From a virus (Duplodnaviria; Heunggongvirae; Uroviricota; Caudoviricetes): a DNA stretch of 39,530 nucleotides. Made by a program: the position numbers. This document shows positions 15,001 through 18,000 of the stretch, piece after piece; the first letter of the stretch is position 1, and each line of letters opens with the position of its first letter. The stretch lies in the IMG/VR virus record IMGVR_UViG_2718218228_000004, one strand, 5' to 3'.

Positions 15001-18000
15001 AAAGCGCCCCGTAATTTTAGAGGCGCAGGATGTGTTGATAACCTACAGAGGAAAACTACCGGGAATAATTACGGGTTCTCTGAAGACTCCACCGCTGGCC
15101 TGAAGACTTAACATATCCAGGGATTTGAAATCGATAAACCCTGATAAATATCCATGAACGCAAAAATCAGATACGGCCTGTCGGCTGCCGTTCTGGCGCT
15201 GATTGGTGCAGGGGCGTCTGCGCCTGAAATCCTCGACCAGTTTCTTGACGAAAAAGAAGGTAACCACACCACGGCATACCGTGATGGTGCGGGTATCTGG
15301 ACCATCTGCCGCGGTGCCATCCTGGTGGATGGTAAACCTGTCGTTCCGGGCATGAAGTTGTCGAAGGAAAAATGCGACCAGGTTAACGCCATTGAACGTG
15401 ATAAGGCGCTGGAGTGGGTGGAGCGCAATATTAAAGTACCGCTGACCGAACCCCAGAAAGCGGGGATCGCGTCATTCTGTCCGTACAACATTGGTCCCGG
15501 TAAGTGTTTCCCGTCGACGTTTTACAGACGAATTAATGCAGGTGATCGCAGGGGAGCGTGTGAGGCGATTCGCTGGTGGATTAAGGACGGTGGCAGAGAC
15601 TGCCGTATTCGCTCAAACAACTGCTACGGTCAGGTTTCACGGCGTGACCAGGAGAGCGCGCTGGCGTGCTGGGGAATTGACAGATAAGCAGAATATTTTG
15701 CTGAAAAATGCGGTTTGCTCACACTGGCGGATAACACGAAATCCTGCGAACTGGCAAAAACTAAGTGAATAAAAGTAAAACCCCGTTTGTTGGCCGCAAA
15801 CGGGGTTTTGTGTTTCTGACCTTGAGTAAGGCAAGGGAGAACATGGGAAAGTATAAACGAATTCTGTTGAGATTGACTATGAAAAACGGCCTTGAACTGA
15901 AAGCGCCTGTAACTGATGACGTCAGCAGAGCGCTGGCTTTTGCTATTAAGTGGGTGGCGGTCGGTATTGCTGTGTCTCCGATGCTGTATGGGCTGGCAAA
16001 ACTGGTCATTGCGTTGAAATCGTGAAGAGGATTAAGCATGTCAGACAAGCTCATAACGCTGGCGAAGATCCTCTGTGTAATCGTCGGCATTTCATTTTCA
16101 CTAATGCTGGTTGCTATTTGCTTTTCCACTGCCTGGCGCGTCTTAACTTTGTCATGGCTGGTGGGGTGAGGGGGATATGAACCGCCCCGGAAATCCTGGA
16201 GACTAAACTCCCTGAGAAAGAGGTAAACAGGATGACTAAAAATACTCGTTTTTCCCCCGAAGTCCGTCAGCGGGCGATTCGTATGGTTCTGGAAAGTCAG
16301 GATGAATATGACTCACAGTGGGCGGCAATTTGTTCCATTGCCCCAAAGATTGGCTGTACGCCGGAGACTCTGCGTGTCTGGGTTCGCCAGCATGAGCGGG
16401 ATACCGGGGGCGGTGATGGTGGGCTCACCAGCGCTGAACGTCAGCGTCTGAAAGAGCTGGAACGTGAAAATCGTGAACTGCGCCGCAGTAACGATATCCT
16501 TCGCCAGGCTTCCGCTTATTTTGCGAAGGCGGAGTTCGACCGCCTCTGGAAAAAATGATGCCACTGCTGGATAAGCTGCGTGAGCAGTACGGGGTCGGAC
16601 CGGTATGCAGCGAACTGCATATTGCCCCGTCAACGTATTACCATTGTCAGCAACAGCGACATCATCCGGATAAACGCAGTGCCCGTGCGCAGCACGACGA
16701 CTGGCTGAAGAGAGAGATACAGCGCGTATACGATGAAAATCATCAGGTGTACGGTGTGCGTAAAGTCTGGCGTCAGTTGTTACGGGAAGGAATCAGGGTG
16801 GCCAGATGTACAGTGGCACGTCTCATGGCGGTTATGGGACTTGCCGGTGTTCTCCGGGGTAAAAAGGTCCGTACGACCATCAGCCGGAAAGCCGTTGCCG
16901 CAGGCGACCGCGTAAACCGTCAGTTCGTGGCAGAACGACCTGACCAGCTGTGGGTGGCTGATTTTACTTACGTCAGCACATGGCAGGGCTTCGTCTATGT
17001 GGCGTTTATCATTGATGTGTTTGCCGGATACATCGTGGGGTGGCGGGTCTCATCGTCTATGGAAACGACATTCGTGCTGGATGCGCTGGAGCAGGCGTTG
17101 TGGGCCCGTCGTCCGTCTGGCACCATCCATCACAGCGATAAAGGCTCTCAGTATGTGTCACTGGCCTATACGGAGCGACTAAAAGAAGCCGGATTACTGG
17201 CATCAACAGGGAGTACAGGCGACTCGTATGACAACGCGATGGCTGAGAGCATCAATGGTCTTTACAAAGCGGAGGTAATACACCGTAAGAGCTGGAAAAA
17301 CCGTGCAGAAGTGGAACTGGCCACACTAACGTGGGTGGACTGGTATAACAATCGACGATTGCTGGGAAGGCTGGGCCATACTCCTCCGGCAGAAGCAGAA
17401 AAAGCTTATTATGCTTCCATCGGAAACGATGATCTGGCAGCCTGAGTTCACAGATAAAACACTCTCCAGGAAACCCGGGGCGGTTCAATATGAACCGTGT
17501 TCTGTGTGTGGTGATTATTGTCCTGCTGGTAGCCTGTGGTGTGCTTAGTCTGGGGCTGAATCATTACCGCGATAACGCCATTACCTACAAAGCGCAACGC
17601 GATAAAAAAGCCAGTGAGCTGAAGCTGGCGAACGTGACAATTACTGATATGCAGGTACGCCAGCGTGATGTCGCTGCACTTGATGCCAGATACTCGAGGG
17701 AATTAGCCGATGCGAGAGCTGAAAATGAAACTCTGCGTGCTGATGTTGCCGCTGGTCGTAAGCGCCTGCGCATCAACGCCAACTGTCCAGGCTCCTTGCG
17801 TAAAGCCCCCATCACCTCCGGCGTGGATAATGCAACCGGTCCCCGACTGGCAGAAGCCGCTGAACGGGATTATTTCATCCTCAGAGAACGGCTGATGGCA
17901 ATGCAGAAGCAACTGGAAGGAGCACAGGAATATATCCGTACCCAGTGTATACCGTGATGTTTTGTTATGAAGGTGTTACTGGTAACGTTAAGGTAATTTA

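Follow-up and report, generated by a model that had tools for sequence, protein, structure and literature searches.

An IS629 insertion at the Rz start codon of a defective O157 prophage and its predicted effect on spanin translation

The insertions of IS1 and IS2 in gal and lac are classical examples of polar or uncoupling mutations, in which an insertion sequence (IS) comes to separate a gene from the signals for its expression. IS629 duplicates 3 to 4 bp of target DNA, shows no target consensus, and is enriched in the prophages of Escherichia coli O157 (Rump et al. 2011, PMC3271280; PMC5359411). Its precise excision, which depends on IEE, has also been described in the literature. With respect to phage lysis, loss of the spanin is known to block lysis when divalent cations stabilize the outer membrane (PMC6139136).

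The stretch of DNA analyzed here (39,530 nt; the window) is 100% identical throughout to E. coli strain 350 (NZ_CP018243.1) and contains two copies of IS629, the second of which (copy 2) is located at the start of the spanin gene Rz (Table 1). Taken together, the evidence makes it likely that copy 2 is a recent, strain-private insertion at the Rz start of a defective Sp14/CP-933U-type prophage, and that it has produced a spanin hypomorph. Apart from its neat junction geometry, the event is an ordinary case of IS insertion, of a kind that is routine in O157.

Table 1. Features in and around the lysis cassette, with positions counted along the window
Feature	Position	Strand	Remarks
IS629 copy 1	12973..14282	-	Target duplication TAC; opposite orientation to copy 2; ancestral, common to other O157:H7 strains
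P21-type holin, YdfR-family gene, lysozyme	14548..15687	+	PF04971, PF00959; upstream of Rz, between the IS copies
Upstream 43-aa hydrophobic ORF	16038..16169	+	TGA 7 nt before native Rz ATG
Orphaned native Rz Shine-Dalgarno region (GGTGAGGGGG)	16165..16174	+	Now 1.3 kb from Rz ATG
Left copy of 3-bp target duplication ATA	16175..16177	.	Last A and IS-derived TG form a new ATG
Nine-codon decoy ORF (MNRPGNPGD*) behind native Shine-Dalgarno	16177..16206	+	Enters the IS
IS629/IS1203-type IS, copy 2, intact	16178..17487	+	1310 bp; terminal repeats, exact length
IRL, left terminal inverted repeat, copy 2	16178..16202	+	
orfA (HTH_Tnp_1), copy 2	16232..16558	+	PF01527, 2.4e-12
ALIL frameshift-stimulating pseudoknot	16513..16629	+	Rfam RF01497, 121.5 bits
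orfB (DDE integrase core), copy 2	16555..17445	+	PF00665 rve, 9.3e-28; also PF13276
IRR, right terminal inverted repeat, copy 2	17463..17487	+	
Predicted junction hairpin (GCGGUUCA-AUA-UGAACCGU)	17480..17498	+	IS tip and IS-tip-like Rz 5' end
Right copy of target duplication ATA	17488..17490	.	Last A begins the true Rz ATG
Rz i-spanin gene, 155 aa, coding sequence intact	17490..17957	+	PF03245, 2e-46
Rz1 o-spanin gene, +1 frame inside Rz	17710..17895	+	Lipobox VSAC; PF06085, 4.1e-19

Anatomy of copy 2 and its empty site

Copy 2 starts with TGAACCGCCCCGG and finishes with CCGGGGCGGTTCA, and its 25-nt terminal inverted repeats are 88% complementary (TGAACCG...CGGTTCA). Both its length and its imperfect 5'-TG...CA-3' ends are those of the IS3 family (IS629/IS1203 type). 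ATA is found on both flanks and only once at the empty site, as is typical of a 3- to 4-bp target-site duplication. Furthermore, the HTH-encoding orfA is overlapped in the -1 frame by orfB, which encodes the DDE (rve) domain, and OrfAB is produced via a -1 frameshift (annotated by RefSeq as a 'programmed frameshift') next to a stimulatory structure. In RefSeq, the transposase (WP_171877072.1) is called 'IS3-like element IS1203 family', and junction queries containing IS sequence had matches of at least 99% in about 1,000 to 3,700 E. coli records. Length, repeats, duplication, and empty site agree with one another, which speaks against chance similarity, and with the identification of an intact IS629-type element in the earlier note.

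When copy 2 and one ATA are removed, the sequence GGTGAGGGGGAT-ATG-AACCGT is restored. The earlier note had proposed that this would give Rz a normal Shine-Dalgarno (SD) and ATG, and the same sequence is found unchanged in IS-free relatives. The reconstructed empty site (600 nt) was matched over its full length with 100% identity in 25 of the 25 E. coli matches listed; identity of at least 99% was seen in at least 379 records, and query coverage of at least 80% in 998.

The Rz start codon is equally well defined. In the IS-free strains 10671 and 86-24, RefSeq places the start of the 155-aa 'lysis protein' (WP_001082682.1) at the same ATG, and the protein accession in the record carrying copy 2 is identical to that of the IS-free strains. 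No in-frame ATG, GTG, or TTG occurs between this ATG (position 17490) and the upstream stop at -33, which leaves it as the sole possible upstream start, preceded by the IS terminal repeat as originally described. Downstream, only the GTG codons 7, 8, and 18 are available, all of which lack an SD and fall within the transmembrane segment; an alternative Rz start was therefore rejected. Hence, neither an Rz start elsewhere nor an absence of the empty site from IS-free relatives was found. The insertion had been placed between the Rz SD and its ATG. Separation from the SD is confirmed, but the cut covers the start codon itself (-2 to +1), and the functional effect is the same in either case.

Both spanin coding sequences are unaltered by copy 2. 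The PF03245 match covers residues 29 to 153 of Rz behind a hydrophobic N terminus, as in i-spanins with a transmembrane segment (TMD) and a periplasmic domain, while Rz1 is an embedded lipoprotein gene in an alternative frame with a lipobox, as in two-component spanins.

Junction geometry and predicted Rz expression

As the duplicated ATA extends from -2 to +1 relative to the Rz ATG, an ATG is rebuilt at both junctions, and the true Rz ATG now lies 2 nt past the right end of copy 2. At the left junction, the decoy ORF ends 25 nt before the orfA ATG. Any termination-reinitiation coupling from the 43-aa ORF, for which the profile search returned no Pfam match, would now go to the decoy ORF. At the right junction, a new hairpin is predicted over the Rz start because the 5' end of Rz (TGAACCGT) mirrors the IS tip (TGAACCGC). 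This hairpin has 8 bp (-10.2 kcal/mol; z = -3.9), is present in the centroid structure of a 71-nt context, and was also picked up by a terminator-like scan; of the Rz AUG, the UG is part of the stem and the A is unpaired in the loop. The ATG regenerated on both sides, the nine-codon decoy ORF on the left, and the start-codon hairpin on the right were not mentioned in the earlier note.

The replacement SD-like sequence in IRR, GGGGCGG, is weak and interrupted and lies about 5 to 9 nt upstream of the Rz ATG. The best anti-SD duplex is -11.3 kcal/mol at the native site versus -7.2 kcal/mol at the IS junction, and in each of the four contexts tested, opening of the -12 to +4 region is 3.5 to 4 kcal/mol costlier at the IS junction. 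By a simplified Salis-type sum, the native site comes to -0.5 kcal/mol and the IS junction to +6.9 kcal/mol. However, the opening energy of the wider -18 to +13 region shows the reverse, favoring the IS context with 100- to 150-nt flanks, and the native SD region is also partly paired in the predicted fold. This crude thermodynamic model predicts Rz initiation to be about 10- to 30-fold weaker; initiation is probably cut by about one order of magnitude or more, and the outcome is probably a hypomorphic spanin allele and not a null. Residual translation of Rz from GGGGCGG at a workable spacing could suffice for function.

The last point raises the alternative that the insertion is functionally silent, with GGGGCGG and read-through late mRNA together preserving spanin function. 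Several observations are in line with it: the SD-like duplex predicted in the right repeat has acceptable spacing, the A of the Rz AUG is unpaired, opening of the -18 to +13 region is no worse than native in long contexts, and the Rz and Rz1 coding sequences are intact. Yet the replacement duplex is 4 kcal/mol weaker than the native one and interrupted, the hairpin pairs part of the substitute SD as well as the UG of AUG, and the stop of the 43-aa ORF, a possible source of coupling, now sits beside the decoy ATG. In addition, the orfB stop, 44 nt upstream of the Rz ATG, is presumably too distant for terminating ribosomes to melt the hairpin. We therefore consider a silent insertion unlikely and favor reduced translation of Rz.

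Transcription of Rz has always relied on read-through that starts at the Q-dependent late promoter. As copy 2 has the same orientation as the late operon, this read-through should continue, and Rz is probably still transcribed, via either Q-antiterminated late transcription or read-through of the IS transcript. The older, oppositely oriented copy 1 lies between Q/pR' and the holin gene, however, and late transcription may not extend as far as Rz. The earlier note had Rz expression depending on IS read-through or on an outward-firing promoter. Read-through agrees with the orientation of copy 2, but an outward promoter at the IS right end was rejected, since a consensus scan found no sigma-70-like match on the + strand of that end; likewise, our literature search returned nothing relevant on an outward promoter of IS629. 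Because the ATG follows the end of the IS by just 2 nt, an IS3-type hybrid promoter, with its -35 in the right repeat and its -10 in the flank, would on geometric grounds have its transcription start downstream of this codon. The main change for Rz would therefore appear to be translational and not transcriptional.

Distribution, target choice, and state of the prophage

Both junctions of copy 2 were found in only one of 5,426 complete E. coli genomes, namely, strain 350. The left junction had a contiguous match in one of the 5,426, and the sole full-length, one-piece match of the right junction was again strain 350; two further records with at least 80% coverage of the right junction carry the IS at different sites. 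The sister strain 10671 lacks copy 2, and its flanks are 1 SNP and 2 indels apart from those of strain 350. The Rz start as a recurrent hot spot was rejected, as the insertion occurs in one genome and the other IS629 copies near Rz are sited elsewhere.

Copy 2 is known from one long-read assembly, and the finding of both junctions in a single genome could point to an assembly artifact, all the more as this assembly has a homopolymer-type terL frameshift relative to the near-identical sister strain. We regard an artifact as extremely improbable. The element is exactly 1310 bp long and has both repeats, and its 3-bp target, perfectly duplicated here, is found intact elsewhere; misassembly would not produce a target-site duplication. 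Moreover, the IRR of copy 2 is one base off that of the neighboring copy 1, so simple collapse or duplication of the latter does not account for copy 2. This base is the only difference between the copies and represents a private SNP in copy 1 of strain 350; it says nothing about copy 1 as a donor. Copy 1 probably corresponds to IS.15 of Sp14, a site reported in all A6 clonal-complex strains (PMC3271280). An inversion between the copies was rejected because copies 1 and 2 are each flanked by a matching duplication of their own, TAC and ATA, respectively, and the intervening genes have the late-operon orientation.

A different question is whether the target was chosen through its resemblance to the IS end, i.e., by IR-targeted insertion, with the Rz SD and start now opening a leader ORF and the transposase becoming induced with the late phage genes. 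Seven of eight positions agree between TGAACCGT and the IS tip TGAACCGC, with the 3-bp offset that is typical of IRR-3bp-IRL circle junctions (chance about 4e-4 per end by a binomial estimate), the leader ORF is placed 25 nt upstream of orfA, and IS3-family elements with identical tips lie beside TGAACCGC-like sequence elsewhere (L011, L015). IR-targeted insertion, reportedly a property of IS911, would be the precedent. On the other hand, none of 117 distinct IS629 right-end flanks in viral contigs had more than 5 of 8 matches, the mimicry is absent at the other insertions examined, and no second genome carries an IS here, despite the empty site being present in at least 379 records (at least 99% identity). 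The resemblance was also noticed post hoc, and IS629 has no target consensus in the data of Rump et al. (PMC3271280). A scan for IR-like target patterns gave 0 hits in viral contigs, and the 17 hits in genomes were all in unrelated taxa and consisted for the most part of IS ends that abut or of coding sequences matching by chance. Based on the flank survey and the pattern scans, a general preference of IS629 for IR-like targets was rejected. Targeted insertion with this rewiring is doubtful, and the mimicry at the Rz start may be due to chance. The three-part combination of non-random steering by 7- to 8-nt mimicry, a masked spanin start, and a Q-dependent late transposase from copy 2 is quite improbable. 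In this combined reading, the transposase of copy 2 would fire on prophage induction.

The prophage of strain 350 is defective and unable to make capsids. Of the capsid gene, a stump corresponding to profile positions 1 to 80 of 329 is left, which runs into the tail-tube gene, and RefSeq flags terL, gpJ, and int of the source record as frameshifted. espJ and tccP (an EspF-repeat effector) lie beyond the tail-fiber genes and adjoin yodB (RefSeq), as in lambdoid prophages of the Sp14/CP-933U type; we take the prophage to belong to this type. The O157 genomes listed have 4 to 10 places each that match the Rz-region probe.

Likely consequences and comparison with known systems

For this strain-private insertion, the event would be an intact IS629 transposing by a copy-out/paste-in route into the ATA at -2 to +1 of the Rz start. 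The native SD and the 43-aa ORF stop now feed a dead-end ORF entering the IS, and the Rz start would be left with a weak SD-like sequence and with its UG paired. This would represent a further step in the IS-driven decay of a cryptic prophage, which may be reversed by IEE-promoted precise excision. A lysis defect in divalent-cation medium, anticipated if the spanin is lost, fits the known phenotype (PMC6139136) but is largely moot, as the prophage is defective and the genome has several Rz matches. With no capsids and other Rz/Rz1 pairs present, the consequences for the cell are probably negligible.

The insertion thus carries little weight beyond strain-level genomics. With a near-identical sister prophage that lacks it, it is nevertheless a clean, datable case of IS629 eroding cryptic O157 prophages. 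It also illustrates that an IS can disable translation signals while the coding sequence is untouched and automated annotation still reports an intact 'lysis protein'. If Rz output is truly lowered, the cassette would amount to a naturally occurring spanin hypomorph in which excision would restore a selectable lysis phenotype, making it handy for measuring IEE-mediated precise excision. The prophage bears the effectors TccP and EspJ, which further immobilization would help fix in the chromosome; it was, however, already immobile before copy 2 arrived. In the literature searched, no description of IS629 on the Rz start codon was found.

With IR-targeted insertion of IS911, the locus shares an IS3-family end located 3 bp away from sequence similar to the opposite end, like a partial circle junction. 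Here, however, only 7 to 8 nt are IR-like, the IS629 survey of 117 flanks revealed no such preference, and chance is possible. As in classical uncoupling mutations, more than 1 kb of IS DNA separates an intact coding sequence from the signals upstream of it. In contrast to classical polar insertions, Q-antiterminated transcription should resist polarity, and the predicted defect is one of initiation, with a lost SD and a masked AUG. The element resembles the IS629 (IS1203/IS1203v) insertions in O157:H7 prophages in its 1310-bp length, 3-bp duplication, and -1 frameshift, as well as in the prophage bias and the strain-to-strain presence/absence polymorphism (Ooka et al. 2009; PMC3271280; Shaaban et al. 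2016, PMC5359411). It differs from other IS629 copies near Rz, which lie at different positions in other prophages, and is confined to one genome. Finally, the cassette resembles Rz-Rz1 of lambda and phage 21 (PMC6139136), with an N-terminal TMD and PF03245, an embedded +1-frame Rz1, and the pair as the last genes of a P21-type holin/lysozyme cassette. Unlike in spanin nulls of these phages, the spanin genes are unmutated, a hypomorph is predicted, and the prophage is unable to form virions.

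Copy 2 of IS629 and its empty site

Copy 2, the IS629 element on the start codon of Rz, which encodes the i-spanin, is complete and showed every testable defining feature of an IS629-type element of the IS3 family; its terminal repeats span 25 nt and are 88% complementary. RefSeq names its product [quoted passage not shown], and IS629 is also named IS1203v in the literature. ATA flanks the element at 16175-16177 and 17488-17490, and in silico deletion of the IS and one ATA gave ...GGTGAGGGGGAT ATG AAC CGT..., the pre-insertion sequence (GGTGAGGGGGAT-ATG-AACCGT) rebuilt in the earlier note. 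The empty site, reconstructed over 600 nt, was matched at 100% identity and full length by all 25 E. coli records listed, and 379 records matched at ≥99%. The rebuilt site, which the earlier reading required in IS-free relatives, is thus present there, and the element boundaries, the ATA duplication and the empty site all agree with an insertion at the Rz start.

All testable defining features of an embedded Rz/Rz1 spanin pair were found, and in strains 10671 and 86-24, which have no IS at this site, the 155-aa RefSeq "lysis protein" WP_001082682.1 begins at exactly the same ATG. The phage collection held only remoter relatives of the empty site (~87-93% identity), annotated as "endopeptidase Rz". 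As the reconstructed sequence has no in-frame ATG, GTG or TTG after the upstream stop (at -33) and before the Rz ATG, Rz could not initiate elsewhere upstream, a possibility that would have told against the original description.

Features of the window discussed in the text
Feature	Coordinates	Strand	Remarks
Q gene	8853-9539		PF06323
IS629 copy 1	12973-14282	-	Inverted relative to copy 2
Terminator-like hairpin	15777-15809		13-bp, G+C-rich; between endolysin gene and Rz
Small hydrophobic ORF	15843-16025		60 aa; no Pfam match
Small hydrophobic ORF	16038-16169		43 aa; no Pfam match; stops 7 nt before native Rz ATG
IS629 copy 2	16178-17487	+	IS3 family, 1310 bp; begins TGAACCGCCCCGG, ends CCGGGGCGGTTCA
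orfA of copy 2	16232-16558	+	PF01527
ALIL frameshift pseudoknot	16513-16629	+	Rfam RF01497, 121.5 bits
orfB of copy 2	16555-17445	+	PF13276, PF00665; overlaps orfA, -1 frame
Rz	ATG at 17490	+	PF03245, 2e-46
Rz1 (o-spanin)	17710-17895	+	PF06085, 4.1e-19; within Rz, +1 frame
PerC-family regulator gene, pch-like	18430-18744		PF06069, 2e-44; directly downstream of Rz/Rz1
Major capsid gene stump	25571-25834		87 aa, N-terminal; PF03864 positions 1-80 of 329
Tail-fibre gene repeats	37583-37886		Collagen-like, GXY-type
EspF-repeat (TccP-like) effector gene	38397-39401	-	Six tandem 141-bp units; window right end

All 39,530 nt of the window agree at 100% identity with E. coli strain 350 (NZ_CP018243.1), a human isolate from the UK. 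Its record stands among O157 genomes of UK origin that bear neighboring accession numbers and that we take to be those of PMC5359411. Among 5426 complete E. coli genomes, the left junction was found as one contiguous match in strain 350 only. The right junction was likewise contiguous only there; two further records reached ≥80% coverage in two pieces, with the IS elsewhere upstream of Rz in other prophages. A 9.6-kb comparison with the strain 10671 prophage showed no differences from the window other than copy 2, one SNP and two small indels. Together, these comparisons make copy 2 a recent, strain-private insertion. Upstream of the PerC-family gene, a stretch rich in T and G shows an 8-bp length difference from strain 10671 at 18324-18331.

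Strains 10671, 86-24 and Show KS 470-1 also carry copy 1. Rump et al. found one Sp14 IS629 site in all A6 clonal-complex strains (PMC3271280), and copy 1 is probably that site. It differs from copy 2 by 1 base and has its own duplication, TAC, so an inversion between the two copies is ruled out. At position 12986, in its right terminal inverted repeat (IRR), the window has T where strain 10671 and (as complement) copy 2 have G; this T is either a sequencing error or unique to strain 350, and the donor of copy 2 can therefore not be inferred. The two inverted, near-identical copies bracket the holin/YdfR/endolysin block (14283-16177) in a composite transposon-like arrangement, and homologous recombination between them would turn the lysis genes around with respect to the late promoter.

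O157 prophages harbor many IS629 insertions, which vary between strains and have been well documented (PMC3271280, PMC5359411). In the same prophage of strain Show KS 470-1, an independent IS629 splits perC. Other O157 prophages, with an HNH endonuclease and terminase downstream, carry independent copies ~170 nt (MB9-1) and ~500 nt (7.1_Anguil) upstream of Rz; given these two, the endolysin-to-Rz interval gathers IS629 repeatedly, at differing sites. What is distinctive of copy 2 is its geometry only: the ATG is regenerated twice, the Shine-Dalgarno (SD) sequence is left to a decoy ORF and the true start is masked by a predicted hairpin of IS tip and target.

Junction geometry and expression of Rz

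Since the ATA duplicated by the insertion spans -2 to +1 of the Rz start codon and the IS begins with TG, ATG followed by AAC CG arises on both sides. At the left junction, a new ATG now lies behind the native SD (GGTGAGGGGG) and the TGA stop (16167-16169) of the upstream 43-aa ORF; it opens a 9-codon ORF (ATG AAC CGC CCC GGA AAT CCT GGA GAC TAA, 16177-16206) ending 25 nt before the orfA ATG. At the right junction, the true Rz ATG is preceded by ...CCCGGGGCGGTTCAAT. At 7/8 positions, the 5' bases of Rz (TGAACCGT) are the same as those of the IS tip (TGAACCGC), which makes this junction palindromic (GCGGTTCA-ATA-TGAACCGT, 17480-17498). Its RNA is predicted to form an 8-bp hairpin (-10.2 kcal/mol, z = -3.9 versus shuffles) that is the centroid structure of a 71-nt context, has the Rz AUG's U and G paired in its stem and was also flagged by the terminator-like scan.

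The computed best anti-SD duplex weakens from -11.3 kcal/mol in the native sequence to -7.2 kcal/mol with the IS, where it is interrupted. In each of the four context sizes, the IS raises the cost of opening the -12 to +4 region by 3.5-4 kcal/mol; for the wider -18 to +13 region, long contexts reverse this difference. By a simplified Salis-type sum, the native site scores -0.5 kcal/mol and the IS-bearing site +6.9 kcal/mol; under the usual scaling of this crude model we calculate ~28-fold lower Rz initiation. Modeling thus suggests that initiation probably drops by an order of magnitude without being abolished. The orfB stop lies 44 nt upstream of the Rz ATG, and a terminating ribosome would be too distant to melt the hairpin. 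Rz1 expression should be unaffected, as translation of Rz1 begins at a separate start within Rz, but Rz1 needs Rz to function, since lysis is blocked when either gene is knocked out (PMC6139136).

The source-record annotation places tRNA genes, an esterase gene, holin, endolysin and Rz after Q. Rz would lie within a Q-dependent late operon, and antiterminated transcription should cross copy 2 because the IS is co-oriented with that operon; the element's own transcript may also exit via the right end. A promoter scan detected no outward sigma-70-like promoter at the right end, and an IS3-style hybrid promoter there would initiate downstream of the Rz ATG, which lies only 2 nt beyond the IS. The earlier note was sound at its core in its account of the junctions and their effect on Rz; it overlooked the double ATG, the decoy ORF and the start-codon hairpin, and placed its emphasis on read-through and promoters instead of translation.

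Spanin loss in a defective prophage

Lambda and phage 21 lacking either spanin leave spherical cells enclosed by the outer membrane, and in shaken cultures the phenotype appears only with millimolar divalent cations, which stabilize that membrane (PMC6139136). The lysis defect in divalent-cation medium anticipated for this prophage is thus the right phenotype for a spanin null. That anticipation passed over the prophage's already-dead state, to which the capsid stump attests. The stump overlaps the 5' end of the tail-tube gene (25819-26559); the remaining capsid gene and any head-completion genes before the tail-tube gene are deleted, and the prophage is unable to make heads. In the RefSeq annotation, terL, gpJ and int also carry frameshifts; in terL this is one extra G (~20186-20187) relative to strain 10671, possibly a long-read homopolymer sequencing error.

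A probe for the Rz region matched 4-10 places per genome in the E. coli genomes listed (most of them O157), so paralogous spanins exist. The insertion is also potentially reversible, as IS629 is known from the literature to undergo precise excision dependent on transposase and IEE. For these reasons, the spanin-loss phenotype is nearly irrelevant in this setting.

Beyond the tail fibers, RefSeq places espJ and the EspF-repeat effector gene (tccP) adjoining yodB, an arrangement that marks the prophage as one of the Sp14/CP-933U type. The terminator-like hairpin and two small ORFs between the endolysin gene and Rz resemble a small moron within the lysis cassette.

Target choice

The likeness of the target to the IS tip raises a minority possibility, that it steered the insertion. 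We estimate the binomial chance of ≥7/8 matches at ~4e-4 per end, for an observation made post hoc. However, the pattern IS-tip-NNN-TGAACCG was absent from the viral contigs scanned, none of 117 distinct IS629 right-end flanks sampled from them exceeded 5/8 matches at offsets 2-5, and no mimicry occurred in the other insertions examined. Rump et al. reported no target consensus for IS629 (PMC3271280), and no other genome has an IS here, although at least 379 records carry the empty site at ≥99% identity. Species-representative genomes gave 17 matches to the pattern, all in unrelated taxa and most of them abutted IS ends or chance. Two loci (L011 and L015) that look like an IS3-family end adjoining a short TGAACCGC weakly favor steering.

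IS3-family elements with 13-nt tips identical to those of IS629 were seen at L008, L014, L017 and L022 (also L011, L015 and L016), and such tips extend to Acidobacteria, Alphaproteobacteria, Clostridia and Actinobacteria. Several of these distant loci are abutted IRR-3bp-IRL junctions (IRL, left terminal inverted repeat), which would be tandem copies or circle junction-like arrangements. Insertion targeted to inverted repeats is known for IS911, and the 7/8 target-to-tip match of copy 2, at the 3-bp spacing of an IS circle junction, recalls that feature.
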